Assembly: GCA_000989185.1 (NCBI GenBank)
Contig: LBNX01000003.1
Coordinates: forward strand, 33,704 to 97,703
Reading direction: 5' to 3'
From: a candidate division TM6 bacterium GW2011_GWF2_28_16
GTDB lineage: Bacteria; Babelota; Babeliae; Babelales; UASB340
DNA: 64,000 nucleotides
The notes under the pieces are model-generated. The model made no database searches, was not told the DNA's origin, and saw only the letters and a list, made by a program, of their open reading frames with translations. The position numbers and the translations under genes were made by a program. Below, piece by piece: positions 5,475 through 31,007 of the stretch (positions within the stretch are counted from its first letter, which is position 1; every line of letters begins with the position of its first letter).

Positions 5475-6092
5475 ATGCAAAATCAAAAAGAAAATTTAAA
5501 AAATGTTTTTGTAAAAAAAGAAGATGAAAAAATTTTAGTTATAAAAAGAGATATTTTATTTAATAAAAAAAGTATCTCTGGTTTAGAAAAAGTTGATTTT
5601 GATTATTATCAAGATCTAATCGAAAAAAATCAAGAATTTATTTGGCGTTCTGTAGCAGAAACAGATAATAGTTATAAACAAGTAATCCCATATTTAATTT
5701 TTAATTTTCAAGATAAATATTTTTTAATGCAACGTAAATCTAAAGCAAGCGAAGTTAGATTACAGAATTTATATTCACTCGGTATCGGCGGCCATATACG
5801 TCAAGAAGATATTACAGGGAGTGATATTTATAGTTGGGCTAAAAGAGAATTTTTAGAAGAAGTAGAATATTCTGGAAATTTAAAAATAAAAGCTCTTGGT
5901 ATTTTAAATGACGATTCTAACTCTGTTGGACAAGTTCATGTAGGTTTTGTTTTTTTATTAACAGGTGATTCAAGTAATATTAAGGTTAAAGAAGAATTAA
6001 AATCTGGTGAGTTATTAACTTTAAGTGAATGTAAAAAATATTACGAAAATATGGAAAATTGGACTAAATTGGTTTTTGATTTTTTGAAGTAA
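5475..6092 (+). CDS. Divergent Nudix-like hydrolase
   Basis: 205 aa. GIGGHIRQE...WAKREFLEEVEY resembles a Nudix box (G-x5-E...REUxEE) with a longer than canonical insert. Confidence 0.45.
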   Translation: MQNQKENLKNVFVKKEDEKILVIKRDILFNKKSISGLEKVDFDYYQDLIEKNQEFIWRSVAETDNSYKQVIPYLIFNFQDKYFLMQRKSKASEVRLQNLYSLGIGGHIRQEDITGSDIYSWAKREFLEEVEYSGNLKIKALGILNDDSNSVGQVHVGFVFLLTGDSSNIKVKEELKSGELLTLSECKKYYENMENWTKLVFDFLK

Positions 6093-6100
6093 TTTAGTTT

Positions 6101-6122
6101 GCCCAGCGCATGTGCGCTGGGC
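6101..6122. terminator. GC-rich palindromic hairpin between convergent genes (also a repeat-family module)
   Basis: GCCCAGCGCA-tg-TGCGCTGGGC is a perfect palindrome. The near-identical GCCCAGTGCGTGTGCGCTGGGC recurs at 59223-59244. Confidence 0.6.
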
Positions 6123-6134
6123 AACAATTAATTT

Positions 6135-7163
6135 TTATATAACAGGATAAGGTCTGTGAAACTTCGGTTCATAAGCCTCATTTTTAATTATTTTTCTTAC
6201 AATCTCTTTTTCATTTCTTGCTGATTCTTGTGCGTTTTTTACTGTTAAACGAAGATTATTTACATATAAATATATTTCAATAAAAGTATTCGAGCTTGTT
6301 GATAGCATTGGATCAATTTCTTTTGTAAAAATATCTTCTGAATATGCAAGATTTCCACAACCCTTATTTGTAGATTCTCCTGTCCAATACCAGGCTGTTA
6401 AATTACGAAGCCCCATTGGGTCTTCAAATTTTTTTACAAAATATTCATTAGCTTTTATACATTCTTCTGTAATATTATTACCATATAATCTTATAGAAAA
6501 TGGATAATTCGTTGTATTTATAATTTTTACGAATTGGCCATATACTTCTTCTTTTTTTCTATCTATTTTTTTTATTTCAAAATCTATACCTTTATTATCA
6601 AATTTAATATGAGTTTGTTTGAAGTCTAGTATATTTACAGGATAATCTGTTTTATCTATATCAAAACGTCTTATAAGCTTATTATTACTTTTTTTATAAA
6701 CTTTAATTTCTTTTAAGTTTATATTTTCTCTAAATAACTTTTTACTTTTTTTAGGTTCTATAGTTGTAGATCTATTTTTACCCATAGCGACATTTAAATC
6801 GACTTTTATTGAATAATCTAAATCGTTATAAAGTTTTAAAGTATAAAATGGGTTTACGGAAATTTTGGGTTTTTTTGTTCCTGATATATTAATTACAGTA
6901 GCTTGATTGTTTTTGACATTTATTTTTTTTGTATATTTTGATGTGTTATCATTAAAAGATGCTTCGATATTTTTGATATCCATATTTGAGTTTATAACTT
7001 TATGTGAATTTGCATTTACAGTAAATTCTTTATCTGGTCCGGTTTGATCTAATTTTATAGTAACTTTTTGTTTGCTTTTGTTATTGAATATTGCTTTGCC
7101 CTGATCGCAATATAAACTTGTTGTTAATAATAAAAACAATATAAATAAATTATATCTTTTCAT
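6135..7163 (-). CDS. Hypothetical secreted protein
   Basis: 342-aa ORF with an N-terminal signal-like segment, MKRYNLFILFLLLTTSLYC. I recognise no motif. Confidence 0.6.
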   Translation of the reverse strand: MKRYNLFILFLLLTTSLYCDQGKAIFNNKSKQKVTIKLDQTGPDKEFTVNANSHKVINSNMDIKNIEASFNDNTSKYTKKINVKNNQATVINISGTKKPKISVNPFYTLKLYNDLDYSIKVDLNVAMGKNRSTTIEPKKSKKLFRENINLKEIKVYKKSNNKLIRRFDIDKTDYPVNILDFKQTHIKFDNKGIDFEIKKIDRKKEEVYGQFVKIINTTNYPFSIRLYGNNITEECIKANEYFVKKFEDPMGLRNLTAWYWTGESTNKGCGNLAYSEDIFTKEIDPMLSTSSNTFIEIYLYVNNLRLTVKNAQESARNEKEIVRKIIKNEAYEPKFHRPYPVI

Positions 7164-7278
7164 AAAACTCTCCCTTAAAAAAATATTAGAAAAATAAACG
7201 TATAAGAATATTATTAATATTATTTTTGTACGTTAAGCAATAATATAATTATTTTTTATATAATTTATTTAAATTTAT

Positions 7279-8079
7279 TTAGTTTTTATTAATTAAATCC
7301 CAGATATTTAAAAAATCTTTAAAAGATAATTGCTGGGCTCTAAGTTTGAGAGTCTCTGGAGAAAATTTACTTAAATCATAATGTGTTGTTTTTAAATTAT
7401 TTACTAATGTTCTTCTTGGAGCTAAAAAGCATAATTTTAAAAATTTCCAGAATTCTATTTCGTTATTTATTGGTGTGATATTTTCTTTGGGTTTAAAATA
7501 AATTAATCTTGAATCAACTTTGGGTGGTGGGGTAAAAGCCTCTGGTCCAATTTTTTCCATTAATTCAAAATCAAAATAATGCTGCAAAAATAGAGAAGTA
7601 GAATTATATCCCCTGCCAGATTTGGCTACAATTTTTTGAGCTACTTCTTCTTGTATCATGACTACGCCTTCTTTAAATAAGTCACGATTTTTTTGTATTA
7701 AATAAAATATTGGAAAAGTTATTTGATATGGCAAATTAGCGAGTAATACCCAAGGCTTTAATTCTTGTAAATTACTTAAATCGACATCTAAAATATTAGT
7801 TATATTTATTTTTAATCTAGAATCTTTAATTGTATTTTGAACATAATCAGCCCATTCCGGATCAATTTCATAAACAAAAAGTTCTTTGCATTTTGTTAAG
7901 TTTAAAACTGCTTTGGTCAAAAAACCTTCGCCGCAGCCAATTTCTAAAACTCTAGTTTCTGGTGTTATAGTAACTTTTTTTATCATGTTTTCTACAACAG
8001 AGAATTTTTTTAAAAAGTGCTGGCCAAACTGCTTTTTTTTGGCAGGCTTATTTTCTATATTATTAAAATTATTATTCAT
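7279..8079 (-). CDS. rsmA: 16S rRNA (adenine1518/1519-N6)-dimethyltransferase
   Basis: 266 aa. It has FGQHFL, the SAM motif VLEIGCGEGFLT and NLPYQIT. Confidence 0.9.
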   Translation of the reverse strand: MNNNFNNIENKPAKKKQFGQHFLKKFSVVENMIKKVTITPETRVLEIGCGEGFLTKAVLNLTKCKELFVYEIDPEWADYVQNTIKDSRLKINITNILDVDLSNLQELKPWVLLANLPYQITFPIFYLIQKNRDLFKEGVVMIQEEVAQKIVAKSGRGYNSTSLFLQHYFDFELMEKIGPEAFTPPPKVDSRLIYFKPKENITPINNEIEFWKFLKLCFLAPRRTLVNNLKTTHYDLSKFSPETLKLRAQQLSFKDFLNIWDLINKN

Positions 8080-8169
8080 AAATATTATTTTATCTGGTTT
8101 ACATATTGTTTTAATATGATAGAACTATAACATATTTTTAATTAATAGTGAATTTTGAAGGGTTTTTAT

Positions 8170-12960: not shown

Positions 12961-14280
12961 ATGGATGCACAACAATCTCTTTTTAAAAAAAATATAAAAC
13001 CTTTATCAGAAAATATGCGACCCAAAAATTTGGATGATATTTTTGGTCAAGAGCACTTGCTAGCGCAGGGCGCTATATTCAGAAAATTAGTCGAAAATGA
13101 TAGTTTGGGTAGCGTAATTTTTTGGGGGCCTCCTGGTACAGGCAAAACAACTATAGCAAATGTTATTGCTAATATCACAGAGCGCAAATTTATTACATTT
13201 CATGCAGCGTTTAATGGTGCAAAAGAAGTAAAAGATGTAATAGAATTAGCACAAAAAGAAATAAGTTTTGGTGCTAAAAGTTTAATATTGTTTGTAGATG
13301 AAATTCATAGATTTAATAAAGCACAGCAAGATTTATTTTTAAAACCTATAGAGCACGGTCAAATAATTTTAATAGGGGCTACAACAGAAAATCCTAGTTT
13401 TGCTGTAAATAATGCTTTATTAAGCAGATGCTCTGTTTATGCACTTAATCAATTAAAAGATATAGATCTAGAAAAAATAATTAATAAAATTCTTGAATAT
13501 TATAAAGCTTTAAATAAACAAGTCTTAATAGACGAACAAGCTAGAAAAATATTAATCGATTATTCTAATGGCGATGCTAGAAATATTATTAATATTATAG
13601 AATTAGCTGTTAGTGCATCTAAAGGATTAGTTAAAAATTGTGTAATTATAACTGTTGATATTATAAAAGAATTATTATCGACCAGAAAATTTGCTTATGA
13701 TAAAAATGGAGAACAGCATTATAATTTGCTATCAGCTTTGCATAAGTCTATTAGAGGCTCTGATGCTCAGGCTGGTATTTACTGGCTTGCAAGATTGCTT
13801 GAATCGGGTGCTGACCCATTAATTATTGTAAGAAGATTAATAGTAGCTGCAAGTGAAGATGTTGGTCTTGCAGATCCAGACGCACTACTTCAAGCTATTG
13901 CTGTAAAACATGCTATAGAACATTTGGGTTTGCCTGAGTGTAAAATAAATTTATCACAGTTAGTTATTTATTTGGCTACAGCACCAAAATCTAATAGTGC
14001 TTATATTGCTATAAATAATGCAATAAAAGATGTACATGAAAAAAATAATTTACCTGTGCCTTTAAATATTTGTAATGCAGAATCAAAGCTTATGACAAAT
14101 TTAGGATATGGTGCATATTATAAGTATGATCATGAATTTAAGTATCATTATGCAGGGCAAGAATTTTTGCCAGAAGATTTAAAAAATAGTATATATTATT
14201 CTCCAGGGGATTTGGGGTTTGAAAAAGAAATAAAAAGAAGAATAGAATTTTGGAAAAATTTAAAGGAATCTCATGGTTGA
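12961..14280 (+). CDS. rarA: Replication-associated recombination protein A (MgsA/RarA AAA+ ATPase)
   Basis: 439 aa. It has MRPKNLDDIFGQEHLL, Walker A GPPGTGKTT, Walker B LFVDEIHRFNK and the conserved C-terminal YW..R......DP block. Confidence 0.92.
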   Translation: MDAQQSLFKKNIKPLSENMRPKNLDDIFGQEHLLAQGAIFRKLVENDSLGSVIFWGPPGTGKTTIANVIANITERKFITFHAAFNGAKEVKDVIELAQKEISFGAKSLILFVDEIHRFNKAQQDLFLKPIEHGQIILIGATTENPSFAVNNALLSRCSVYALNQLKDIDLEKIINKILEYYKALNKQVLIDEQARKILIDYSNGDARNIINIIELAVSASKGLVKNCVIITVDIIKELLSTRKFAYDKNGEQHYNLLSALHKSIRGSDAQAGIYWLARLLESGADPLIIVRRLIVAASEDVGLADPDALLQAIAVKHAIEHLGLPECKINLSQLVIYLATAPKSNSAYIAINNAIKDVHEKNNLPVPLNICNAESKLMTNLGYGAYYKYDHEFKYHYAGQEFLPEDLKNSIYYSPGDLGFEKEIKRRIEFWKNLKESHG

Positions 14281-15190
14281 ACGTGTTGTTATAATTGGTT
14301 CTGGTCCAGCAGGACTTACTGCTGGTATTTATTTGGGTAGGGCAAAATTTGAGCCATTATTAATTGAGGGCATGCAACCTGGTGGTCAGCTTACTACAAC
14401 AACTAAAGTTGAAAATTGGCCAGGGATAAAAGAAGTTATGGGCTTTAAACTCATGATGGATATGAAAGATCATGCAAAGGCTTCTGGCTGTAAAATTATT
14501 TCTGATACAGTAGAAAGAGTAGATTTTTCTGGCATACCATATAAAATTTTTACAAAATTGGGAAAAGAATTTTTGGCTGAATCTGTAATAATTGCTACAG
14601 GAGCAAGTCACAAAAAATTAGGCATACAGGGAGAACAAGAATATTGGGCTAAAGGTGTTTCTGTTTGTGCAACATGTGATGCTCCATTTTTTCAGGATAA
14701 AAATGTGATTATAGTTGGCGGTGGTGATAGTGCTGTGACAGAAGCTGAGCATTTAACTCACTTTGCTAAAACAGTAACTATAGTTCATTTATTAGAAGAG
14801 CTAACTGCAAAAGATCCAATTAAATATAAAGTTCTTGAAAATAAAAAAGTAAATGTAATTTATAATTCAAGTGTTAAAAAAATAGATGGGGATGGTCTAC
14901 GTATGACCAAAGTTACTATAGAACATCAACAGACAGGTGATACTAAGGTTATCCCTGCAGAGGGTCTTTTTGTAGCCATTGGTATGAAGCCTAATACTGA
15001 TTTTTTAAAATCACAATTAGATTTAGATAATTATGGTTATGTTGTTCTTACTGGAAAAACTACAACTTCAAAAGAGGGCGTTTTTGCTGCAGGCGATGTT
15101 GCTGATTTTGTTTATAAACAAGCTATAACGGCTTCTGGTTTTGGGACTCAAGCTGCACTTGATTGTCAAAGATATTTATCAAAAAAATAA
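14273..15190 (+). CDS. trxB: Thioredoxin reductase (cytosolic type)
   Basis: 305 aa. It has the FAD motif IIGSGPAG, the redox CATCDAPFF and the NADPH motif IIVGGGDSA. There is an 8-nt overlap with rarA. Confidence 0.92.
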   Translation: MVERVVIIGSGPAGLTAGIYLGRAKFEPLLIEGMQPGGQLTTTTKVENWPGIKEVMGFKLMMDMKDHAKASGCKIISDTVERVDFSGIPYKIFTKLGKEFLAESVIIATGASHKKLGIQGEQEYWAKGVSVCATCDAPFFQDKNVIIVGGGDSAVTEAEHLTHFAKTVTIVHLLEELTAKDPIKYKVLENKKVNVIYNSSVKKIDGDGLRMTKVTIEHQQTGDTKVIPAEGLFVAIGMKPNTDFLKSQLDLDNYGYVVLTGKTTTSKEGVFAAGDVADFVYKQAITASGFGTQAALDCQRYLSKK

Positions 15191-17081: not shown

Positions 17082-18599
17082 TTAATTATTTAATTTTTCG
17101 TTAATAATTTGTTTAAATGCAACTTCATCTCTGCCACCAGAGAATCTGGCAACCTCTTGGCCATTTTCGAATAATATAAATGTAGGTACTCCTCTAATGC
17201 CCCAAATTTGGGCTAGAATTTCTACATTAGCAACATCTGTTTTTATAAATTTTATAGTGTTTAATTCTTTTGCTAATTTTTCAACAATAGGATGCATCAT
17301 TTTACAAGGGAAGCACCAGTGGGCATAAAAATCTGCAACAACTTTGCCTTTGTAATTTAAAACTTCTTTTGCAAATTGTTGCTCATCTGTAACTTCTATT
17401 ACAGAGCCGAATGTTTGAGATTTTTGGGTTAGGTTCTTTGTAGGTACACTTTTTTTTGCTGGTGCTATTTCTTGAACGTCTTGTTTTTCAGGCGTTATTT
17501 TTTGTGCTTGATCTTGCACATTATTTTCTATATTTGTGTTTGGTGTGCTAAAACCAATTTTTGCTAAAAAACTTTGTGCATGCATTGCTGATCTTGCACC
17601 ATCACCTGCTGCTATAATTAATTGTTTATATTCAGGTTCACAGACATCTCCACAGGCAAAGATACCAGATTTAGAAGTTTTTTGGTTTTTATGGGTTAAG
17701 ATATAACCTTGTTCATCTAAATCTATTTTATTTTTAAATAATTCTGTATTTGGTTTAGCACCTATGGCCAAGAACATGCCATCAATATTAAGTTCACTTG
17801 TACTATTATTTTTATTATTAAATATTTCTAATTTTATAACTTTGTTATTATCGCCAATAACTTTTTTAATATTAGTATTATAAATTATCTCAATATTACT
17901 TTTGTTTTTTACAGTATCTGTTTGTTTGCCAGAAGCTCTTAATGTATCTCTTCTTACTATTAAATAAACTTTTTTCGCAATATTAGAAAGATATAAAGCA
18001 TCTGTAATTGCTGTATTACCACCACCAACTATAGCAACAGTTTTCTCTTTATAAAATGGGCCATCGCATGTTGCACATTTAGAAACGCCGTGCCCAAAAT
18101 ATTCTTTTTCGCCTGGTATATCCAAAAAGTTTGCTGTAGCACCAGTTGCTATAATACAAGATAATGCTTGTATTATTTTATCTTGGTTATTTTCTTTTAT
18201 ATTTATTAAATATGGCCAAACAGAAAAATCTACAGAATTAACTTGAGCGTTTATTATATTTGCACCAGAAGATATAGCATGCTCTTTTATTTTATTAGCC
18301 AAATCTATGCCAGAGATATTTTTTTCACCAGGCCAGTTACAGACAGAGTGTGATGCTGTTATAGCTCCACCAGGGATTGTGCCTTCTAATAAAACATGTT
18401 TTATGTTGCCTTGGCTTAAATAAATACTGGATGTTAACCCTGCAAACCCACCACCAATGATTACAACTGGGTAAGTGCTATCGTCTATTTTTACAACACT
18501 GGCGTCTAATTTTTTGAAATTTTTGGTAGAAGAATAGTTAAGACAACCTACTAAAAATACTAAACATAATATTAACGTTAAATTTTTTATGGCCTTCAT
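17082..18599 (-). CDS. Thioredoxin reductase-thioredoxin fusion with N-terminal lipoprotein signal peptide
   Basis: 505 aa. The signal is MKAIKNLTLILCLVFLVGC (lipobox LVGC). It has FAD (VIIGGGFAG), CATCDG and NADPH (IVGGGNTA) motifs, a low-complexity linker, then a thioredoxin fold with WCFPC. Confidence 0.8.
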   Translation of the reverse strand: MKAIKNLTLILCLVFLVGCLNYSSTKNFKKLDASVVKIDDSTYPVVIIGGGFAGLTSSIYLSQGNIKHVLLEGTIPGGAITASHSVCNWPGEKNISGIDLANKIKEHAISSGANIINAQVNSVDFSVWPYLINIKENNQDKIIQALSCIIATGATANFLDIPGEKEYFGHGVSKCATCDGPFYKEKTVAIVGGGNTAITDALYLSNIAKKVYLIVRRDTLRASGKQTDTVKNKSNIEIIYNTNIKKVIGDNNKVIKLEIFNNKNNSTSELNIDGMFLAIGAKPNTELFKNKIDLDEQGYILTHKNQKTSKSGIFACGDVCEPEYKQLIIAAGDGARSAMHAQSFLAKIGFSTPNTNIENNVQDQAQKITPEKQDVQEIAPAKKSVPTKNLTQKSQTFGSVIEVTDEQQFAKEVLNYKGKVVADFYAHWCFPCKMMHPIVEKLAKELNTIKFIKTDVANVEILAQIWGIRGVPTFILFENGQEVARFSGGRDEVAFKQIINEKLNN

Positions 18600-18782: not shown

Positions 18783-19916
18783 ATGTTTGCTGCTATCAAA
18801 AAAATGGGGTACAAAAAGATCGTTTTTATTTTATTTACGTTTATTTTGGCTATAAATTTTGCTTTTATTAGTAATAAAATTATGGCATTGCCAGATAGCT
18901 TAAATAGTCCAGAAAATATAAGTACTCAAGTAACAAATAAGAGTAATGTTGCTGAAAAAGCAAAAATAAGCTCTTTTTTTAATTTAGAAAATTTAAAACA
19001 AATATTTTCGCCCGAAAAATCTGTATTATATTTATTTATATTGGCATTTTTAATAGGTTTAATTACGAGTTTTACTCCATGTGTTTATCCTATGATTCCA
19101 ATAACTTTGGGAATATTACAAACCCAAGCTAGTGGGTCTGTATTAAGAAATTTTATGTTATCTGTAAGTTATGTTCTTGGTATTAGTACAATATATGCAT
19201 TTTTGGGTTATTTAGCTGCAACAACAGCTATTATGTTTGGTCAATGGTTAGCTAATCCATGGCTTATATTTTTTATAATATTATTTTTTATTTATTTAGC
19301 TTTTTCTATGTTTGGTTTTTACGAAATTAAAATGCCTCGTTTTTTAACTAAAAGAGAAAATGTAAGTGTTAAAGGTTCTTATTTTTATAGTTATTTATTT
19401 GGTTTAATTTCTGGCACAGTTGCATCTCCATGTTTAACACCATCGCTTGCTATAGTTTTGAGCTTTGTAGCAAAAGCTGGTAGCCCGGTAATAGGCTTTT
19501 TTGCCTTGTTTTTCTTTTCTTTAGGGATGGGGATTTTATTAATTTTAATTGGTACATTTTCAGCATCACTTTCTATTTTGCCAAGAGCTGGTATGTGGAT
19601 GATAGAGATTAAAAAGTTTTTTGGTTTTGTTTTGCTTTTTATGTCTATTTATTTTTTACAGCCATTATTGGGTGGATTTGCTGCATATAAATTATATGCG
19701 ATTTTAATTTTAATTTCTGGAGTTTATTATTTAGTAAAAGCTCAAAATAGTAAGATAAAAATTTATTTGGGTATTTTATTAATTATAAGTTCGTTAATAT
19801 TAACGGGATGGATTATAAGAGAAAAAAACACGAGAAGAACAAGGCTTTTGGCTACAAATTTAAAGCCTGACAGTATGCTTGTTTGTTTAAGTACCGCCAG
19901 GCACCAAAGATTATAA
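18783..19916 (+). CDS. CcdA/DsbD-family thiol:disulfide electron-transfer membrane protein
   Basis: 377 aa and polytopic. The conserved Cys motifs are FTPCVYPMIP and VASPCLTP. Confidence 0.8.
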   Translation: MFAAIKKMGYKKIVFILFTFILAINFAFISNKIMALPDSLNSPENISTQVTNKSNVAEKAKISSFFNLENLKQIFSPEKSVLYLFILAFLIGLITSFTPCVYPMIPITLGILQTQASGSVLRNFMLSVSYVLGISTIYAFLGYLAATTAIMFGQWLANPWLIFFIILFFIYLAFSMFGFYEIKMPRFLTKRENVSVKGSYFYSYLFGLISGTVASPCLTPSLAIVLSFVAKAGSPVIGFFALFFFSLGMGILLILIGTFSASLSILPRAGMWMIEIKKFFGFVLLFMSIYFLQPLLGGFAAYKLYAILILISGVYYLVKAQNSKIKIYLGILLIISSLILTGWIIREKNTRRTRLLATNLKPDSMLVCLSTARHQRL

Positions 19917-19920
19917 AAAA

Positions 19921-20355
19921 TTATAATAATTTATTAATAGCTTCTTCGAGTTCTTGTTCAGAAATTTCACCAGCAATTTGTGTTACAATATTATTATCTT
20001 TAAATAATACAAAAGTTGGTACACCTAGTATATTATATTTGTCTGTTATTTCGCCTAAATTGCTTGCATCAACTTTGAAAAAGTTTATTTTTGTAAAATA
20101 TTTATTTGCTAATTTTTCGTAAATAGGTTCCATAACTTTGCATGCGCTGCACCATTTAGTTTCGAACTTAACTACGCAAGGTTTTTGATTTGAAAAAACT
20201 TGGGAATCAAAGTCTTGAGAGCTTGTTATATTAATTATTTTTGAGTTTAAAGTTTCTTGAGAGATATTTATTTGATTGTCGTTGGTTTTTTTTTCTAAAG
20301 AATTACACCCAGAGAAAATAGTCAAAATTATTGTACCAATAAATATTTTTTTCAT
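19921..20355 (-). CDS. Periplasmic (lipoprotein) thioredoxin-like protein
   Basis: 144 aa. The signal MKKIFIGTIILTIFSGC is followed by a thioredoxin fold with WCSAC. Confidence 0.8.
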   Translation of the reverse strand: MKKIFIGTIILTIFSGCNSLEKKTNDNQINISQETLNSKIINITSSQDFDSQVFSNQKPCVVKFETKWCSACKVMEPIYEKLANKYFTKINFFKVDASNLGEITDKYNILGVPTFVLFKDNNIVTQIAGEISEQELEEAINKLL

Positions 20356-22439: not shown

Positions 22440-22518
22440 TAATTAATTCTTGAGTTAAAATTTTTTTTAATTAAGCTAAAAAAGCTTTTTGATAAATTTT
22501 AATTTAAGGGTTTTTATT

Positions 22519-23202
22519 ATGTTTAAAAAAATAATTTTATTTTTATCTTTTGCTTTTGTTTCGCAATGTGCTTTTTCTGGTAATTCGGTTGAATTGGGAT
22601 CAGGTTTTAATTCTGGTAATTTGCCTAATATTTTATTTGATAACTATAAAAAATATATTGAAAAAAATAATATAACAGATACAGAGGTAACGCGCTTAAA
22701 TTTTTTAGTTGATACATTAACAAAATATCTTGAACCTGAAAATGAATATTATCAAATTTTTTCACAACAAAATTTACTTGAGTCATTTGCAAAAAAATTT
22801 GAAATAGAAAAGTTGTTTTTAATTAACTTTGATAAAAATTATAAACCTGGTGATTATTACATTCATTGGTTAATTAGAACAGAAAAATTAAATTTTGAAC
22901 TAAAATATAAAAATATAAAAAATTTGTTGGTTGATGATGTTGATCCAAATGTTTTAGATGCCGAAAATAAAACCCCAATAGATTTAGTTTTAAAAAATAA
23001 TTTTACCGTAGAATTTGCTAAATTATTTTGTGATTTTAAGGTAAACATTTATCCACACACTTATGATTTATTAAAAGATTATGAACCTGAAGATTTTAGT
23101 CAAGAAACATGGATTGATATTTTTGAGAAGTTTAAAAATAATTGTAAAGACTGTGAAGAAATATCAAAAGATGTAAAAACTGAAAAAAACGTTGAAAATT
23201 AA
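22519..23202 (+). CDS. Hypothetical secreted protein (C-terminal ANK-like remnant)
   Basis: The ATG at 22519 follows AAGGGTTTTTATT. It has the signal-like MFKKIILFLSFAFVSQCAFS. The C-terminus (DAENKTPIDLVLKNNF) resembles that of the next gene. Confidence 0.55.
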   Translation: MFKKIILFLSFAFVSQCAFSGNSVELGSGFNSGNLPNILFDNYKKYIEKNNITDTEVTRLNFLVDTLTKYLEPENEYYQIFSQQNLLESFAKKFEIEKLFLINFDKNYKPGDYYIHWLIRTEKLNFELKYKNIKNLLVDDVDPNVLDAENKTPIDLVLKNNFTVEFAKLFCDFKVNIYPHTYDLLKDYEPEDFSQETWIDIFEKFKNNCKDCEEISKDVKTEKNVEN

Positions 23203-23288
23203 ACAAAAACACGTTTTTCTATCTGTAATATTTTTGCTATAATAAATATGTGTAAAAGTTAGAAAATCGTTTAAAAATGGGGGTTTTT

Positions 23289-24359
23289 ATGAAAATGTAT
23301 TCAAAAATTATATTATTTTTGTGCTTTTTAGGTGTTTCTCATGATTATGTGAATGCTTCTATTAGAAAAAAGTTGAGAAAGAAGAGAAATCCTAATAATA
23401 TGCTTGAGCGTGAGTTAAAAAGATTAAAAATAAAAAAAGAAGAAGATATAATTTGGTTAGAAAAGTGTCCATATTCTTTACGTAGTAAAATTTTTTCAAA
23501 ATTAGACTTAAATAGTTTGTTAAAAACAGCAGAGTTAAATAAAGTTCTTTATAAAGATGTCTGTGATTTTGTATTTTATAAATTAGAAAATAAACAAGGT
23601 CAATTGGTATTTTTAGCTTATTTTAAAGAATGGGAATTATTAAAAAATAAGTTAAATGAATTTAAAGAAAATACTATTTCGGTACCGTATGAATTTAAAG
23701 ATATAAATCCATTAATATTAATGATAGAAAATCAAGCTCCTGTAGAGATAATAGAATTAATGGTTGATATGTATCCACATTTTTTATTTATACATAATGC
23801 AAGACTTACTTATGCTTTTACTGGATTTGAAAATTCATATCATAGGTATGCAGCTCTTGGAACATTGCTTATTAATTTTAAAAATTATGAAAAAGAATGG
23901 TTTTATGAGGTTTTGGATATTATATTATCAATAAATAGAGATTTTTTATTTCGTATTTCTGAATTTCAGGAAGATTATGATGATTTTGATTCGTATTTAC
24001 ATTGGGTATTAAAAACAAAAAATATGGATCATGATACTAAGATTGATGTTCTTCAGCAATTTTTAACTTATGGCGCTAATCTAAATAAATTGAATAACGA
24101 AGAAAAAACTCCATTACATATTGTAATAGAAAATAAAATGAGTTTAGATTTTATAGTTTTATTAATTGATGCAGACGCTGTAGTAGATCAAGATATTATT
24201 GATACTTTTGAACAAAATTATAAGGATCAAGAAGATAAAACGGAATATGAAGAATTTTTAAATATTCTTAAAGTACATTTTAATTATAATCCTGAAATTG
24301 AAAATAATTTAGTCTTTGCAAATAATAGCGATGATTTTGCTTCTGGTTTAGAAGATTAA
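23289..24359 (+). CDS. F-box-like plus ankyrin-repeat protein
   Basis: The ATG at 23289 follows GGGGGTTTTT. The F-box-like block is WLEKCPYSLRSKIFSKLDLNSLLKTAELNKVLYKDVCD (about 23448-23567). ANK-like GANLNKLNNEEKTPLHIVIEN lies near the C-terminus. Confidence 0.6.
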   Translation: MKMYSKIILFLCFLGVSHDYVNASIRKKLRKKRNPNNMLERELKRLKIKKEEDIIWLEKCPYSLRSKIFSKLDLNSLLKTAELNKVLYKDVCDFVFYKLENKQGQLVFLAYFKEWELLKNKLNEFKENTISVPYEFKDINPLILMIENQAPVEIIELMVDMYPHFLFIHNARLTYAFTGFENSYHRYAALGTLLINFKNYEKEWFYEVLDIILSINRDFLFRISEFQEDYDDFDSYLHWVLKTKNMDHDTKIDVLQQFLTYGANLNKLNNEEKTPLHIVIENKMSLDFIVLLIDADAVVDQDIIDTFEQNYKDQEDKTEYEEFLNILKVHFNYNPEIENNLVFANNSDDFASGLED

Positions 24360-24442: not shown

Positions 24443-25219
24443 TTATAAAATAGCTTTAAATTCTTCAAAAATTTGATCTGGTGTTTTTTGTGAAACACTT
24501 AATATTTCTATATTTATACCAGAATCTTGATACGCTTTTATAAGCTCATCTTCGTTTTTATAATAAACATCAAATCTTTGTGAAATAACTTCTGGCTTAT
24601 CATCATTTCTTTGTATTAAAACACTACTACATTTTAAGCATTTGCCTGCAGCAATTTCTGGCATAGAGGTATTATAAACAGCCTGACAAGATTTATTAGG
24701 GCAAACGCGTCTATTAACAAGTCTATTGGTTATCTCGCCTTTTGATATTTCTAGTTTTACTACTCTAAAATTATGTTCGGGTAAATTATTTTTAATTAAA
24801 GTTATTAATTTTTGAGCTTGAACATCTGTTCTTGGAAATCCATCTAAAATTATTTGTCTATCTGTATCTTTTACAGATAACAGCCATTCCTTTACCATGC
24901 TAATTACAAGATCGTCTGGTACTAGTTCGCCTTTGTCCATATACTTTTTAAGTTCTTGGCCAATAGTAGTATTGTTTGCAATATGTTGTCTGAATAAATC
25001 ACCTGTCGAAAGAACGATAAAATTTAATTTGCTTGCTGCTTGTTGAGCTAATGTGCCTTTGCCAGCACCAGGAGCACTTAAAAATGTGAATATAAATTTT
25101 TTATTTTTTAGCATGTTATTTTTGACCTCTTTACTATTATTTATAAAATTAGAGCAACCTGATAATAAAATTAAACAAAAAATAAATATATTTGTCACGA
25201 TCTTAGTTATTGTCTGCAT
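24443..25219 (-). CDS. adk: Adenylate kinase with an in-frame N-terminal lipoprotein signal peptide (alternative internal start at 25114)
   Basis: P-loop SAPGAGKGT and Zn-lid Cys pairs (CPNKSC...CLKC) are present. The 35-codon extension MQTITKIVTNIFIFCLILLSGC has a classic lipobox. Both ATGs have SD-like purine runs upstream. Confidence 0.85.
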   Translation of the reverse strand: MQTITKIVTNIFIFCLILLSGCSNFINNSKEVKNNMLKNKKFIFTFLSAPGAGKGTLAQQAASKLNFIVLSTGDLFRQHIANNTTIGQELKKYMDKGELVPDDLVISMVKEWLLSVKDTDRQIILDGFPRTDVQAQKLITLIKNNLPEHNFRVVKLEISKGEITNRLVNRRVCPNKSCQAVYNTSMPEIAAGKCLKCSSVLIQRNDDKPEVISQRFDVYYKNEDELIKAYQDSGINIEILSVSQKTPDQIFEEFKAIL

Positions 25220-25272
25220 ATGTACCCCATAAAAATAAAATTTTACTAAAAAATAATTAATTTAAAAATTAT

Positions 25273-26958
25273 TTAAAAAATAGGCTCAAATTCGCAGTTT
25301 TTTGGTTTTGGTAAGTTTAATATTTTTGCAACTGTTGCAGGTAGTTGTGGTATCCATACTCTATTTTTAAATTTTTTATGTTCAAAAACACCTGGTTGAT
25401 AAATTATTAATGGAACATGCGTATTAAATTTACTACCAGTTCTATGCCCTGTACCATATTTTTCTTCAGCAACTGTAGAATATTTATTTGGTATGATAAT
25501 TATGTGACCAGATCTTTTTAGATATATTTGATTTTTATAAAAGTTTTCAACAGAGCTAAACTTAAAATTACCATTTAGTAATTCTTGATCTGTATAAACT
25601 TTGCTTACTCCTGGCTTGGAGCGTATTATTTTTTTAATATTTTTAAATAAGCTATTTTTAGTATCTACTGGAATTTTGTTTAGTTCTTTAACGTTTAAAT
25701 ATAGTTGGCATGATTTAATTTCGTAAACAATATTATTTATATTATATTTAGTTTTTATTTTATTATTGATTTCAGCTTTGAGTTCATTTGCTTTTATAAC
25801 ATGTGCATCGTAACCGCGTTTTTTGCTTATTTTTACTAATGGTTGTATGCCATGATCTGCTGTTAAAATAAATAATATATTTTTTTCGCCAATTTTTTTA
25901 TTAATAAAATTTGTAAATTCTTTTATTTGATGGTCTAGGTGGTAAATCATGTCTATAGCTTCTATGCTATCTGGACCGTATGTATGACCTAAATAATCTA
26001 ACGGAGAAAGTGAAATCCATAAAAGCATTGGTTTTATGGGTTTTGTATTATCAAAATTTTTTTCTATACATGTTTTACTTAAATCAAGTAATACTTTATT
26101 TGCTAAAGGTGTTTTAATAAATTCACTATATTCAGGGTATTCGTAAATATTTTTTTTAAAATAATCTTTTAAATATTTATTTGAAATTAATGTTTTATTA
26201 TCTTGAACATATTTATAATGTGTTTTTTTATGAAAATCTATATAGTCAAAATTGTAATATTTAGTTTTGCTATTTATTGTATATAAATATTTATTATGTA
26301 ATTTATAAAATAACTCCCATTTATAATTTTTTATAATATTATCAAGGTTATAATTTGCATTAAAATCTTGAACCCATTCTGGTATTTCATTAAAAAAAGC
26401 TTTAGATGTTGTAAAAATTCCTGTTTTATCATCAAACCAAATAGGATTGCCAGACGCACCAGACATACCAATAGATGCTCTAGATTTTAGTGATATAGAA
26501 TATGTTTTATAATCTGGATATTTTTTTGTAAATTCATAAGTAAGCCCTGAGCACATAGTATTTTTAGCACTTTTACCGTAATTTTGTAGTTTGTTCTCTG
26601 GACCAAAAACTAAAGAATTTTGTGAATCATCTTGATCACTTTTTACTTTTTGATATTCCGGGGTTATCCAAGCATTATTTATTATTCCATGATCGCGAGC
26701 AAAAGCTCCTGTGTTTAATGCTGTATGCCCGGTTGCTGTAGCTGGCGTTCCATGAGGATGATGCGCGTTTCTGCAAGTAATACCATTCTTTAGTAAATCT
26801 TTAAATGCATAATTAAAATTTTCATTTAATTTTTCTATATAATTATAAGCAAACTGATCTATTACCATTATTATAGTTAAGTCTGGTATATTGCTAAAAA
26901 TATTTAAACTAAAAATTAAATTTAATAATAATATTTTAATAAATAAAGATGTTTTCAT
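25273..26958 (-). CDS. Secreted alkaline-phosphatase-superfamily enzyme (PafA/NPP-like)
   Basis: 561 aa with a signal peptide. The metal/nucleophile region is VIDQF...GTPATATGHTALNTGAFARDHGIINNAW, with a distal ADHG. Confidence 0.6.
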   Translation of the reverse strand: MKTSLFIKILLLNLIFSLNIFSNIPDLTIIMVIDQFAYNYIEKLNENFNYAFKDLLKNGITCRNAHHPHGTPATATGHTALNTGAFARDHGIINNAWITPEYQKVKSDQDDSQNSLVFGPENKLQNYGKSAKNTMCSGLTYEFTKKYPDYKTYSISLKSRASIGMSGASGNPIWFDDKTGIFTTSKAFFNEIPEWVQDFNANYNLDNIIKNYKWELFYKLHNKYLYTINSKTKYYNFDYIDFHKKTHYKYVQDNKTLISNKYLKDYFKKNIYEYPEYSEFIKTPLANKVLLDLSKTCIEKNFDNTKPIKPMLLWISLSPLDYLGHTYGPDSIEAIDMIYHLDHQIKEFTNFINKKIGEKNILFILTADHGIQPLVKISKKRGYDAHVIKANELKAEINNKIKTKYNINNIVYEIKSCQLYLNVKELNKIPVDTKNSLFKNIKKIIRSKPGVSKVYTDQELLNGNFKFSSVENFYKNQIYLKRSGHIIIIPNKYSTVAEEKYGTGHRTGSKFNTHVPLIIYQPGVFEHKKFKNRVWIPQLPATVAKILNLPKPKNCEFEPIF

Positions 26959-27127
26959 GAAAATCCCCCCCTAATAATTTTATATGTTTATTTTAACGAT
27001 ATATTGTAGCAATATTTCTAGTTGAAAATAAATAAATTTAATTTTATTAATAATTTTAGCTATATTTATATTGTTTAAGCTAAAAAATCATTTGCGAGAA
27101 TTTTCTTTTTTGATAGTATTATGCTTT

Positions 27128-27174
27128 CCTCGTTGTCGTAAATTATAGTAAAGACGGCGAGGGTTCTTTTTTTT
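27128..27174 (+). promoter_or_regulatory. Terminator-like hairpin inside the 5' leader of the first NTT gene (candidate attenuator)
   Basis: CCTCGTTGTC-(15 nt)-GACGGCGAGG forms a 10-bp stem with two G:U pairs, followed by gttcTTTTTTTT. It sits 48 nt before the ATG. The upstream gene is divergent, so this does not terminate anything. Confidence 0.4.
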
Positions 27175-27221
27175 AAATAAAAGTTTTTTATATAATATTA
27201 TTATTTTTTATAGGAGACCCT

Positions 27222-28574
27222 ATGTTTTTTCGTATTATCAAGTTTTTTTGGCCAGATTTATCTAATGAAGAGATAAAAAAATATGGAATGCTTTCCATGG
27301 CTTTCTTTTTCATTATTGGAGCATACTGGTTATTGCGCCCATTAAAAGATGGTTTCTTTTTTAGTGCAGTAGGTGGAAAATATCAACCAACAGCAAAAAT
27401 GCTTTCAGTTCTTATTGTTGGTATTTTGGTAATGGTTTATTCAAAGCTTGTAGATATAGTCGAGAAACATAAATTATTTTATATTTTGGGTTCTATATAT
27501 ACAGTTTTGTTTGCAATAGTTGCTTACGTAGTAAACTTCCCAGTTGAAGGACCGGGCGCTTTAAACCCATCAATCTTAAGATTTTTTGGTTGGGCTTCTT
27601 ACTTTATTATAGAAAGTTTTGGTTCTATAGTAGTTGCACTTTTTTGGTCTTTTACTGCTAGCGTTTCTGATGCTAAATCTGCAAAAAAAGGTTATTCATT
27701 AGTTATAGCCGGTGCTCAAATTGGCGCAATATTTGGACCCTTTATGGCAACATATGCAAAAAGCTGGGGTTTAATGCCGTTATTTTTAATTGGTACAGTT
27801 TCTATAATGCTTATGATGTTTATCATAAACCGTTTTATGGCTGTAACTCCAAAAGAACAATTAGAAATAAATAAACAAGAAGTTAAATCTGAATCTGCTC
27901 CAAAAACAGGCTTTTTAGAAGGTTTAAAACTTTTATTAACAAGACCATATTTATTAGGAATATTTGCAGTAGTTACAATTTATGAAGTTGTTGGAACTAT
28001 TGTTGACTATCAAATGAAGATGCAAGCACAAGCATTGCCTCAGTATGCATCAAGAGAATCTTTAACAGCATTCTTGGGTGTATTTGGTATGTCTGCAAAT
28101 GCATTAGCATTCTTTATGGCTCTTTTAGGTACAGGTTATATGATGAAAAAACTTGGCCTAAGATTTTGTTTATTAACATTCCCTATTGTTTTGGGTCTTG
28201 CTGTTGCTGGTTTATATGCTGCATATACTTGGGGTCATTTTAATCCAATGATGCTATTGTGGGCAACCTTTGGTGTTATGATGATTGCAAAAGGTTTAAG
28301 CTATGCATTAAATAATCCTGCAAAAGAAATGATGTATATTCCAACAAGTAAAGATGTAAAATTCAAATCTAAAGGTTGGATTGATATGTTTGGCTCAAGA
28401 AGCTCAAAAGCTGTTGGTGCAGCATTTACCGATTCATTAAAAGGTAATGCATATAATTTAATGGCTTATGGAACAATTTTATCTTTAGGCTTTATTGGTG
28501 TTTGGATTGTTGTTGCATTCTTTGTAAGCAATAAATTTGAACGTCTTACAGCAGAAGGCAAAATTGTTGAATAA
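27222..28574 (+). CDS. NTT/Tlc-family nucleotide (ATP/ADP) antiporter, paralog 1
   Basis: 450 aa and polytopic. The blocks LLRPLKDGFFF, ESFGSIVVALFWSF...SAKKGY and NNPAKEMMYIP...KFKSKGWIDMFG match Chlamydia/Rickettsia Npt/Tlc proteins as I remember them. Confidence 0.75.
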   Translation: MFFRIIKFFWPDLSNEEIKKYGMLSMAFFFIIGAYWLLRPLKDGFFFSAVGGKYQPTAKMLSVLIVGILVMVYSKLVDIVEKHKLFYILGSIYTVLFAIVAYVVNFPVEGPGALNPSILRFFGWASYFIIESFGSIVVALFWSFTASVSDAKSAKKGYSLVIAGAQIGAIFGPFMATYAKSWGLMPLFLIGTVSIMLMMFIINRFMAVTPKEQLEINKQEVKSESAPKTGFLEGLKLLLTRPYLLGIFAVVTIYEVVGTIVDYQMKMQAQALPQYASRESLTAFLGVFGMSANALAFFMALLGTGYMMKKLGLRFCLLTFPIVLGLAVAGLYAAYTWGHFNPMMLLWATFGVMMIAKGLSYALNNPAKEMMYIPTSKDVKFKSKGWIDMFGSRSSKAVGAAFTDSLKGNAYNLMAYGTILSLGFIGVWIVVAFFVSNKFERLTAEGKIVE

Positions 28575-28607
28575 GATAAATAAATATAATTTTATTTAAA
28601 ATTTTTA

Positions 28608-28638
28608 AGACCGGCATAACTTGCCGGTCTTTTTTTTA
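28608..28638 (+). terminator. Rho-independent terminator between the two NTT paralogs
   Basis: AGACCGGCA-taac-TTGCCGGTCT followed by T8. Confidence 0.7.
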
Positions 28639-28728
28639 TTTAAAATTTTAAATTTATTTTGTATGCTATACTTTCTTCTTGTAAAAAGGTAATTATTTAA
28701 TAACAAATAATACGAAAGTGTAGAGTTT

Positions 28729-30075
28729 ATGTTTACACGATTTTTTAAATTTTTCGGTAAAGATTTAAGTAGTAAAGAAGTTGAAAAATTTAGTCTTCTT
28801 GCTTTAGCATTTTTTTTTACAGTTGGTGGCTACTGGCTTTTAAAAACATTAAAAGACGGTTTCTTTTTTAATGTCGTTGGTGGTCAATTTCAGCCTAGAG
28901 CAAAAATGCTCTCACTTGTTGTTATTTCTATATTAGTACTTGTTTATAGTAAACTTGTAGATATATTTCATAGACATCAATTATTTTATATTTTTGGAAC
29001 TTTTTTTGCAGTTTTTTTTGCACTTGTATCAATATCTTTGGCTTTACCTGTGCATAGTTTTGGCCCGGCTTATTTGCAATATATAAAAATTTTAGGATGG
29101 GCTTCGTACGTTATGGTCGAAAGCTTTGGATCTATTATGATTGCATTATTCTGGTCTTTTGTAACAAGTATTACAGATACAGAATCTGCAAAGCGTGGTT
29201 ATTTTTTAATTGTTGCAGGCGCTCAACTTGGTGCAATATTTGGTCCCTTTTTATCTTGGAATGCTAAATTTTTTGGATTACCAATATTGTTCGCTATGGC
29301 AACAGCATGCATATTAGCTTTAATTTTAGTCATAAAAAAATTTATTTCAGTTACTCCACAAGAAGAACTTATTGGAGGTAAACAAGATATAAGACCTCAG
29401 GAAAAGACAGGCTTTTGGCAAGGTTTAAAACTTATTACAACCAAACCATATTTATTTGGGATTTTATTATTAGTTATTTTTTATGAAACAGTTACAACTA
29501 TAGTTGATTATCAAATGAAAATTCTAGCACAAGCATTACCTGAGTATGCAACTAAAGAAGCTTTGACATCTTTTATGGGTATATTTGGTATGGCGACCAA
29601 TGGTTTATCTTTATTAATGGCTCTTTTTGGTACAGGTTATTTAATTAAAAAATTTGGGTTACGTTTTTGTTTGTTGGCATTTCCGGTTGCTGTAGGGTTT
29701 GCTATAGCTGCATTATATGGAGTTATTAAATTAGATTTTTTAACTACTCAAAGTATGTTATGGGCAACTTTTACAGTTGTAATTATAGCCAAAGGCTTAA
29801 GTTATGCTCTTAATAATCCTGCAAAAGAGGTTATGTATATTCCAACAAGTAGAGACGCTAAATTTAAAGCTAAAGGTTGGATAGATATGTTTGGTGCCAG
29901 AGGTGCTAAAGCAATAGGTTCTGGGTTTAATGAATATTTAATTAGAACTCCAGATGTTTTATTATATCTTGGTTCTATTTTGTCTTTGGGTTTAATAGGT
30001 ATATGGATTATAGTGGCTCTTCTTGTGGGTAATAAATTTAATAGATTAATAAAAAACAATCAGATAGTCGGATAA
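28729..30075 (+). CDS. NTT/Tlc-family nucleotide antiporter, paralog 2
   Basis: 448 aa, colinear with paralog 1 (LLKTLKDGFFF, ESFGSIMIALFWSF...SAKRGY, NNPAKEVMYIP...KFKAKGWIDMFG). Confidence 0.75.
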   Translation: MFTRFFKFFGKDLSSKEVEKFSLLALAFFFTVGGYWLLKTLKDGFFFNVVGGQFQPRAKMLSLVVISILVLVYSKLVDIFHRHQLFYIFGTFFAVFFALVSISLALPVHSFGPAYLQYIKILGWASYVMVESFGSIMIALFWSFVTSITDTESAKRGYFLIVAGAQLGAIFGPFLSWNAKFFGLPILFAMATACILALILVIKKFISVTPQEELIGGKQDIRPQEKTGFWQGLKLITTKPYLFGILLLVIFYETVTTIVDYQMKILAQALPEYATKEALTSFMGIFGMATNGLSLLMALFGTGYLIKKFGLRFCLLAFPVAVGFAIAALYGVIKLDFLTTQSMLWATFTVVIIAKGLSYALNNPAKEVMYIPTSRDAKFKAKGWIDMFGARGAKAIGSGFNEYLIRTPDVLLYLGSILSLGLIGIWIIVALLVGNKFNRLIKNNQIVG

Positions 30076-30146
30076 AGCTTGTTTTTATTATTTGACAAAG
30101 AGATATATGGCCGTATAATTAAGGCGTAATTGAATTTAGTTTTTAT

Positions 30147-30223
<77 letters not shown>

Positions 30224-30233
30224 AAAGAAAATT

Positions 30234-31007
30234 ATGTACCCAAAATTATTACACATTTTTGGTCCAATATGGATCCACAGTTACGGAACAATGATAGCTG
30301 TGGGTTTTTTATTTTTTGTTTATTTTCTCTATAAAAATCCAAAAAGAATACAATTAATATCTGACGAAAAATTTTTAAATTTATTATTTATAGGACTTAC
30401 TTCTGGAATAATTGGAGGTAGGCTTATTTTTGTTATATACGACTGGGAATTATTTCGAGATAATTTTTGGCAAGTATTTTACCCGTGGGTTGGTGGATTT
30501 GGAATATTGGGTTCTGTTATTGGTGTTTTGTTTTCTTGTTATATATTTTTAAAAAAAAATAAAATAAATTTTTTAAAAATATTTGATCTTGTTGGTGTTT
30601 ATGCAGCATTATTAGAGGGTTTTGGACGTATAGGTTGTTTTTTGGCAGGGTGTTGTTATGGCAAAATAGCTGATGCTAGCTGTACATGCTCTGTTGTATT
30701 TAAAAATCCAGAAGGTCTTGCGCCGCTAAATATACCATTACATCCAACACAGTTATATTCAAGCTTGGCTTCATTTTTAATATTTTTAATTATTTATTTT
30801 AGATCTAAATATTTTTCTTATAAAAATGGTGAAATTATATTTAGTTATTTATTATTGTTTAGTTTGTCGCGAATTATTATAGATTTTTTTAGAGGCGATA
30901 GAGATTTTGTTAATAATTTTTATTTACTTTCTTATTATCAACTAATAGCGATTGTTGTTTTTATTGTTTCGCTTATATCTATAATTTACATTCGAATTAA
31001 AAAATAA
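30234..31007 (+). CDS. lgt: Prolipoprotein diacylglyceryl transferase
   Basis: 257 aa and polytopic. The motifs are IHSYGTMIAVGF, GGRL, GRIGCFLAGCCYG and HPTQLY. Confidence 0.85.
   Translation: MYPKLLHIFGPIWIHSYGTMIAVGFLFFVYFLYKNPKRIQLISDEKFLNLLFIGLTSGIIGGRLIFVIYDWELFRDNFWQVFYPWVGGFGILGSVIGVLFSCYIFLKKNKINFLKIFDLVGVYAALLEGFGRIGCFLAGCCYGKIADASCTCSVVFKNPEGLAPLNIPLHPTQLYSSLASFLIFLIIYFRSKYFSYKNGEIIFSYLLLFSLSRIIIDFFRGDRDFVNNFYLLSYYQLIAIVVFIVSLISIIYIRIKK

Follow-up and report, generated by a model that had tools for sequence, protein, structure and literature searches.

The adenylate kinase gene (adk) found in a 64-kb stretch of DNA from the candidate division TM6 bacterium GW2011_GWF2_28_16 (the whole stretch that was analysed, hereafter the window) encodes a complete adenylate kinase (Adk) preceded by a predicted lipoprotein signal peptide. 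The overall reading proposed here, which is given a probability of about 0.5, is that this gene has been relocated and is translated from two starts, one of which would place the enzyme in the periplasm, where it would rework adenylates beside two nucleotide carriers of the NTT/Tlc family and an exported phosphatase of the PafA type. Few enzymes are as typical of cytoplasmic housekeeping as adenylate kinase, and no periplasmic or lipoprotein Adk was found in the literature searched, nor is one mentioned in the Dependentiae genome papers. The component families are all known, and what is new is an Adk with predicted export and probably a dual start. The elements of the gene are as follows:

24443..25219, minus strand: adk, long form of 258 aa, comprising a lipoprotein signal peptide, a Lys/Asn-rich linker, and a complete Adk with a zinc-type LID
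25154..25219, minus strand: predicted signal peptide of Adk (codons 1–22), ending in the lipobox L-S-G-C (25154–25165), with Cys22 at 25154–25156
25224..25228, minus strand: Shine-Dalgarno-like GGGGT, 4 nt before the first ATG (ATG-1), with a duplex energy of −6.0 kcal/mol
25112..25114, minus strand: internal ATG (Met36), located 12 residues ahead of the P-loop motif and a candidate for a second start
25125..25129, minus strand: Shine-Dalgarno-like GAGGT within the linker codons, 10 nt before Met36, with a duplex energy of −6.5 kcal/mol

Judging by its motif content, the enzyme is catalytically intact. It reaches 133.6 bits with PF00406 (cutoff 26.8) and 195.4 bits with TIGR01351 (cutoff 168), and the ADK_lid profile also scores above its cutoff; the species-level equivalog models for Adk all remain below their own cutoffs. 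The P-loop GAGKGT lies at residue 51, followed by STGDLFR (71), DGFPRT (126), and RNDD (204), and the zinc knuckle of the LID is made up of Cys173, Cys178, Cys194, and Cys197 (Cys4). These four cysteines, together with G51–T56, T72–G73–R77, D126–G127–P129–R130, R166/R170, R204–D206–D207, and R215, are invariant in the clade and in the outgroups; they cover the P-loop, the arginines of the AMP site, and the Arg/Asp residues of the LID.

As Met36 sits just before the P-loop, the possibility that the N-terminal extension is only an artefact of taking the longest open reading frame needed to be excluded. The N-terminus, MQTITK-IVTNIFIFCLIL-LSGC, fits PROSITE PS51257 and also the G+LPP rule. Criteria of the PS51257 type comprise a positive n-region, an uncharged h-region, and a lipobox of the form [LVI][ASTVI][GAS]C with the Cys at positions 15–35. 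The positive charge of the n-region is provided by K6 in the window and by K or KK across the clade, which is composed of the sequences P0001–P0017, with at least 254 bits in the protein search (the next match has 161 bits). As a chance control, 96 short, mostly non-coding open reading frames of the window were used, among which one fits either lipobox rule and none fits both; a lipobox was found in 4 of the 46 open reading frames of at least 150 aa, and the chance rate of a lipobox is about 1% or less. Twelve sequences with Adk identities from 50% to 100% retain the motif L/F-[ST]-[GS]-C, while their h-regions and linkers differ in sequence and length. Counted over the long-form sequences, the lipobox is present in 12 of 15, being absent from P0012 (where the Cys is replaced by Tyr), P0014, and P0017. 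The long start is preceded by Shine-Dalgarno motifs of −5.4 to −10.9 kcal/mol in six of seven lineages—the exception is L001, with +0.2—and the true starts in the examined genomes have a median of −5.0 kcal/mol. The conservation of the lipobox while its flanking residues vary, the ribosome-binding motifs at the long starts, and the low chance rate argue for a signal peptide that is translated and maintained by selection, and the lipobox that the sequence-only reading of this DNA had assigned to Adk is thus borne out.

The same gene holds a candidate second start, which that reading had overlooked. Met is found at the Met36 column in 11 of the 13 long-form Adks, and the Shine-Dalgarno motif of this internal start ranges from −5.7 to −10.0 kcal/mol in six of seven lineages, with spellings that vary from lineage to lineage (AAGAGGT, AAAGGAAAG, AGGAAAAG, and GGAGGG before a TTG). 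Among 960 ordinary internal ATGs taken as background, the median is −1.1 kcal/mol, and 7.6% reach −5 kcal/mol or stronger. In L007 and L011 (UASB340), whose Adks sit next to the window group in the tree, the signal-peptide region is deleted, and adk begins exactly at the Met36 equivalent, with an in-frame stop upstream. In L170 (1–905), this region is still readable but disabled, since the start has changed from ATG to ATA and codon 5 from CAG to the nonsense codon TAG; the adk reading frame from the internal Met and its Shine-Dalgarno motif are intact, and upstream of adk the C-terminal end of the phosphatase can be recognised. The comparison thus indicates that the signal peptide has been lost independently in two lineages, both of which keep adk from the internal start. 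Furthermore, the complete chromosome OY970257.1 (L065, 9899–11443) holds tandem adk genes, one of membrane type and one soluble: the former encodes a protein of 252 aa with an N-terminal hydrophobic anchor, and the latter a plain form of 223 aa with an unusual P-loop, GAGKTT. The conserved internal start with its own Shine-Dalgarno motif, the two signal-less lineages, and the tandem pair of L065 suggest that one adk gene gives rise to two isoforms, one exported and one cytosolic, so that a cytosolic Adk is probably made as well from the internal start.

With regard to its origin, the window adk looks like the relocated housekeeping-type adk of its clade rather than an obvious extra copy, a point that had also been missed. 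In a scan of species-representative genomes, of whose at least 578 matches the best 80 are considered, about 30 further Dependentiae turned up along with many outgroups. The adk genes at 43% identity or less encode 6–15 residues before the P-loop, and every one examined is located in the order rplO-secY-adk-map-infA. On the other hand, the members of the group with hydrophobic N-termini (the window, L001–L014, L065, and L051) are never found in this order; in the window clade, adk follows secA, or secA and the phosphatase gene, and precedes ftsI. In L003–L009, L011, and L013, adk lies downstream of secA, not secY, and atpDC (ATP synthase beta/epsilon) is located between the NTT genes and secA. 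In a neighbour-joining tree, the membrane-type Adks form a single clade (72% bootstrap) that falls within the housekeeping Adks of the Dependentiae, and this points to a relocated housekeeping gene and not to a foreign addition; the horizontal acquisition of an extra adk was ruled out by this nesting. No second adk was detected in the window by tblastn, and no assembly was matched twice for adk among the best 80 of at least 578 matches, although the latter is weak evidence. In addition, L090, L091, and L105 (about 6000–8100) hold Dependentiae-like ribosomal-protein operons where secY is followed by map, with gaps of 34–72 nt and no adk, indicating that the gene has left its canonical slot in further lineages. 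The SecY scan also returned an incomplete locus, L142, from the same metagenome as L005.

The genes that surround adk, together with the regulatory elements found among them, are the following:

25273..26958, minus strand: PafA-type alkaline phosphatase of 561 aa, predicted to be exported, with a signal peptide at roughly residues 1–23
27092..27119, plus strand: conserved promoter of NTT-a (TTGCGA, 17-nt spacer, TAGTAT), in a block aligned in the window, L001, and L011
27128..27174, plus strand: hairpin and T-run in the 5′ leader of NTT-a (10 bp including 2 G–U pairs, 14-nt loop; RNAfold)
27222..28574, plus strand: NTT-a, nucleotide carrier of the TLC/NTT family, 450 aa (PF03219, 109.1 bits, cutoff 21)
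28607..28631, plus strand: strong intrinsic terminator between NTT-a and NTT-b (10-bp stem with 6 G–C pairs, then a T-run)
28729..30075, plus strand: NTT-b, tandem paralogue of NTT-a, 448 aa (PF03219, 91 bits, cutoff 21)
30234..31007, plus strand: lgt, prolipoprotein diacylglyceryl transferase (PF01790, 184.5 bits), directly downstream of NTT-b

The source of the window is an AT-rich (~28% GC) diderm of the phylum Dependentiae, order Babeliales, from the lineage that includes UASB340, and the window homologues retrieved in protein and genome searches carry Dependentiae/Babeliales annotation. Profile searches identified genes for BamA, DsbD/CcdA, and Lgt in the window, which imply an organism with two membranes, a periplasm, and an Lgt lipoprotein pathway. 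It is Lgt that would attach the lipid to Cys22 of Adk. The periplasm of cultured Dependentiae is visible by electron microscopy (PMC6561590), and the phylum is known for ATP import and nucleoside salvage (PMC4776705, PMC6561590).

The phosphatase had been described as a secreted enzyme of a PafA/NPP-like type; its signal peptide and its PafA monoesterase residues are supported, whereas the NPP part of the description is not. The protein aligns end to end with the PafA structure 5tj3 (E = 2.3e-47, residues 25–560), and a hydrophobic N-terminus, found in all seven orthologues, precedes the first PafA-aligned residue (25). It scores 111.6 bits with PF01663 and 260 bits with the PafA model NF042991, below the equivalog cutoff of 650. 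The residues T74, D34/D321/H325/D368/H369/H514, N95, and K158/R160 correspond to T79, D38/D305/H309/D352/H353/H486, N100, and K162/R164 of PafA, and D34, T74, N95, K158, R160, D321, H325, D368, and H369 are invariant across the seven orthologues. In three of them (L003, L009, and L012), the H514 column (PafA His486) is occupied by Asn, with the other catalytic residues invariant, which could stem from a shifted alignment or from a change in the metal site. K158/R160 is the Lys/Arg pair that separates monoesterases from NPP diesterases, and an NPP-type phosphodiesterase was ruled out by this pair and by PafA as the best structural match. By its residues and profile scores, the enzyme is PafA-like without being an equivalog of PafA, and it is not an NPP diesterase.

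Concerning the carriers, their assignment to the NTT/Tlc antiporters was confirmed at the family level by PF03219 scores well above the cutoff, and the exchange of ATP and ADP is predicted only. NTT-a and NTT-b share 55% identity and score 99.3 and 98.7 bits, respectively, with TIGR00769, below its cutoff of 387.2, which marks them as divergent members. NTT-a matches the AtNTT1 structure 9j3j with E = 2.3e-22, both proteins being distant (~1e-22) from the solved AtNTT1 and chlamydial carriers. With one constant offset of 84 applied to the 9j3j alignment, residues K59, E131, D262, and K396 of NTT-a are equivalent to K155, E245, E385, and K527, the charged residues (AtNTT1 numbering) listed for NTTs by Yeoh et al. 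(PMC4776705) and with a known part in the exchange of ATP and ADP, and the same four residues are found in NTT-b. All eight NTT homologues of the clade (8/8) keep the two Lys and the Glu and have Asp at the E385 equivalent. Tandem NTT paralogues have already been described in Dependentiae/TM6, and NTT paralogues of other phyla transport other nucleotides or NAD (PMC4776705). The hairpin in the leader of NTT-a is maintained in L001 by compensatory changes and matches no Rfam family; it is a possible 5′ attenuator, perhaps one that senses nucleoside triphosphates.

The sequences show that adk, a descendant of the housekeeping adk of the phylum, has left the rplO-secY-adk-map slot and acquired a signal peptide of the Sec/Lgt lipoprotein type. 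According to the mechanism proposed, initiation at ATG-1 would produce a lipid-anchored Adk facing the periplasm, and initiation at Met36 an ordinary cytosolic Adk, so that a single gene would supply both compartments. The periplasmic enzyme would equilibrate 2 ADP with ATP and AMP in the compartment from which the NTTs would take host ATP and into which they would release ADP; if Adk acts in this exchange compartment, half of the expelled or host ADP would be recoverable as importable ATP. The exported phosphatase would in turn convert AMP and other organophosphates into nucleosides and phosphate for salvage, and its gene, located 53 nt upstream on the same strand with no terminator detected in between, is probably co-transcribed with adk. 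Nucleoside salvage is a requirement of Dependentiae (PMC6561590).

The sequence-only reading had presented the four adjacent genes as one clustered module. All of them are present, exactly where they had been placed, but they are arranged in two divergent pairs on opposite strands and do not constitute one unit: the minus-strand phosphatase/adk pair is separated from the plus-strand NTT genes by a 263-nt region. The four genes therefore fail as a same-strand, co-transcribed set, and only the phosphatase and adk could share a transcript. The comparison with relatives gave a mixed result and bears out the module only in part. On the one hand, the pair phosphatase→adk is found in seven lineages (a subclade), including those with the signal-less Adks of L007, L011, and L170, although no phosphatase lies beside the signal-peptide Adk of the deeper relatives L005 and L008. 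On the other hand, the full order lgt-NTT-NTT<>phosphatase-adk is seen solely in the window and one other lineage (L001/L002/L010, whose Adk is 69% identical). In the other relatives, the backbone is rpoD-dnaG-lgt-NTT(-NTT)…atpDC…secA-(phosphatase)-adk…ftsI, unless NTT genes are missing within 10 kb; for L003, L005, L007, L008, L009, and L011, either atpDC and secA separate the NTT genes from adk or none lies within that distance. The lgt-dnaG-rpoD block beside the NTT pair is conserved in relatives. As phosphatase→adk persists where the signal of Adk has been lost, this adjacency does not depend on co-localisation of the products. The four-gene adjacency therefore largely reflects inherited gene order and a local, lineage-specific rearrangement, and adjacency alone is no argument for functional coupling. 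Clustering as evidence of coupling is consequently not supported, given the opposite strands, the terminator between the NTT genes, and the limited conservation. What stands of the periplasmic scavenging idea are the targeting signals, the PafA residues, and the diderm envelope with Lgt, and the functional coupling of the four products is plausible but unproven.

Several points weigh against a periplasmic role of Adk or against its second start. A porin-permeable outer membrane would let ADP escape, and a promiscuous PafA in the same compartment would destroy ATP too. In a protein of the periplasm, a Cys4 zinc LID would be an uncommon feature. Only the Lgt half of the lipoprotein processing machinery was located in the window, LspA not having been found within these 64 kb. 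The synteny between the NTT genes and adk is weak, and the clade's own secY locus was not recovered by a metagenome scan with a Dependentiae SecY alignment. The internal Shine-Dalgarno-like motifs fall in Lys/Glu/Gly-rich linker codons, which are purine-rich regardless, and the internal Met and its motif could be slowly decaying relics of the ancestral start. Finally, the hydrophobic N-termini of the deeper relatives L014, L065A, and P0017 have no lipobox and lead into positive charges, a pattern that fits a cytoplasm-facing anchor.

This pattern is the basis of an alternative where an uncleaved N-terminal anchor holds Adk at the inner membrane on its cytoplasmic side, beside the NTTs and without any export. 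The positive charges that follow the hydrophobic stretch in L014 (…AIYYHFTKKPSYK), L065A (…LYVYRSRRS), and P0017 favour an N-out/C-in orientation, and what the wider group has in common is its association with the membrane. In the window clade, however, neither the lipobox Cys nor positions −3 to −1 vary while the h-region does, and this makes sense only if the signal is processed by Lgt and Lsp; moreover, the n-region is positively charged, and a conserved internal start would be needless if the Adk domain were already cytosolic. Such an anchor is considered unlikely. Quite improbable is an annotation artefact, in which the true start would be Met36, the 35 codons upstream would be untranslated, and Adk would be purely cytosolic. 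It is true that Met36 has a good Shine-Dalgarno motif (−6.5 kcal/mol), that forms of 223 aa have been annotated by NCBI and other callers (P0010, P0011, and P0013), that the extension is truly missing in L007/L011, and that the long start of L001 has no such motif. Nevertheless, the extension is open, and its lipobox and h-region are kept in the 12 sequences down to 50% identity despite the variation of the extension in sequence and length; six of the seven long starts do have the motif (−5.4 to −10.9 kcal/mol), a lipobox arises by chance at a rate of only ~1%, and the extension, where disabled (L170), shows a mutated start and a stop codon.

Two further alternatives accept the export of Adk and differ in its purpose. 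The secreted Adk of Pseudomonas aeruginosa has been reported to perturb host adenylate pools or signalling, and the window Adk might likewise act on the host as a surface-exposed or vesicle-released lipoprotein. Its +2 residue is Ser, Thr, or Phe and not Asp, which makes sorting to the outer membrane possible, and the weak synteny with the NTT genes would also suit a host-directed role. Consistent with this idea, outer-membrane vesicles are shed by Chromulinavorax, which also remodels the mitochondria of its host (PMC6561590). Host cells, however, are already rich in Adk, so that little benefit of such a role is apparent, and it is regarded as rather unlikely. The same low credence is given to a strong module, where the four genes would be co-selected and co-regulated as a periplasmic nucleotide-scavenging unit. 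In its favour are the adjacency and the shared divergent promoter region in the window and in L001/L002/L010, as well as the fact that all four products would act on or meet nucleotides outside the cytoplasm. Against it are the opposite strands and the terminator between the NTT genes, the distance of the NTT genes from adk in the six loci mentioned above (L003, L005, L007, L008, L009, and L011), and a phosphatase that is missing beside signal-peptide Adks (L005 and L008) and present beside signal-less ones (L007, L011, and L170).

Besides Adk, the window encodes a second normally cytoplasmic, nucleotide-cofactor enzyme with predicted export. This protein (17082–18599, minus strand) is a fusion of a complete NADPH-type thioredoxin reductase (CATC and GGGNTA motifs) with a thioredoxin (WCFPC), referred to as TrxR-Trx, and holds a lipobox LVGC, with Cys19, that is conserved in L001, L007, and L011. 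Contrary to Adk, the fusion has no Met between the lipobox and the FAD motif, and a separate, plain TrxB paralogue is encoded at 14273–15190. A broader idea, in which adk would be the sole Adk gene, supplying a periplasmic lipoprotein and a cytosolic isoform, and in which the lipoprotein TrxR-Trx would be part of the same strategy, envisages ATP- and NADPH-dependent chemistry of the cytoplasmic type running in the periplasm on host cofactors; this is put forward tentatively, and it is more doubtful than not. The gene for DsbD/CcdA (18783–19916) adjoins that of a 144-aa thioredoxin with a lipobox FSGC (19921–20355), and this periplasmic reducing system travels with adk-ftsI in L001, L003, L005, L007, and L008. 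If Adk is exported, such a system could maintain its Cys4 zinc LID in the reduced state.

Among known systems, the closest functional analogy would be found in mitochondria, where the Adk of the intermembrane space (AK2; Adk1/Aky2 in yeast) works with the ADP/ATP carrier, and where the yeast enzyme is dually localised from a single gene. Like AK2, the Adk proposed here would occupy a compartment enclosed by two membranes and buffer ATP, ADP, and AMP at a neighbouring adenine-nucleotide exchanger. However, the polarity of the carrier would be reversed (ATP in, ADP out), targeting would rely on a bacterial lipoprotein signal, and dual localisation would use alternative translation starts. The origin of the window Adk is also independent of AK2, as it is nested among the Dependentiae Adks. 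Compared to the canonical bacterial Adk (secY-adk-map; TIGR01351), it has the full catalytic core and a zinc-type LID, with other Dependentiae housekeeping Adks as its closest relatives, but it differs in its 35 residues of signal and linker and in its location outside the ribosomal-protein operon, after secA/phosphatase and before ftsI. Nucleotide-converting enzymes outside the Gram-negative cytoplasm are represented by the secreted Adk of P. aeruginosa, which is not known to have a lipobox or a classical signal peptide, and by periplasmic scavengers of the UshA type, which are hydrolases and not phosphotransferases; the window Adk would resemble both in its location, differing from the former in its lipobox and from the latter in being a phosphotransferase.

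Similarly, the phosphatase shares with the phosphate-irrepressible PafA of Elizabethkingia and Flavobacteria (5tj3) the Thr nucleophile, the zinc ligands, the Asn, the Lys/Arg pair, and its predicted export. Unlike PafA, it holds an insertion at about residues 215–275, stays at 260 bits against the cutoff of 650, and comes from an intracellular parasite. The carriers resemble the NTT/Tlc proteins of Chlamydiae, Rickettsiales, plastids, and Dependentiae (9j3j, 9j3n) in their TLC Pfam domain and in the equivalents of K155, E245, and K527, but they are about 50 residues shorter and hold Asp at the E385 equivalent.

Other elements of the region include a tRNA-Met (CAT) between NTT-b and lgt (30092–30223, plus strand), which is preceded by a perfect sigma-70 consensus promoter (TTGACA, 16-nt spacer, TATAAT). 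No known RNA or riboswitch was otherwise found in the intergenic regions, where the Rfam search at E ≤ 1 returned the tRNA-Met alone. The interval between ftsI and adk (22489–24359, plus strand) holds two genes whose products have N-termini resembling signal peptides, and one of these products is weakly ankyrin-like. Both genes are absent at the corresponding position in L001, and the pair has the look of an insertion specific to the lineage, with candidate secreted effectors as its products.

The localisation of Adk would surprise specialists, even though the four-gene module reading has been weakened. The two-start design would be a compact bacterial case of dual targeting from one gene, and if the exported isoform is real, the periplasm of these bacteria would be a convergent counterpart of the mitochondrial intermembrane space, with its AK2 and ADP/ATP carrier, in which the polarity is reversed. 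These energy parasites would then go beyond a simple swap of ADP for host ATP, reworking adenylates in the periplasm and regaining ATP from ADP, and the energetic models of NTT-based parasitism would need to be changed.

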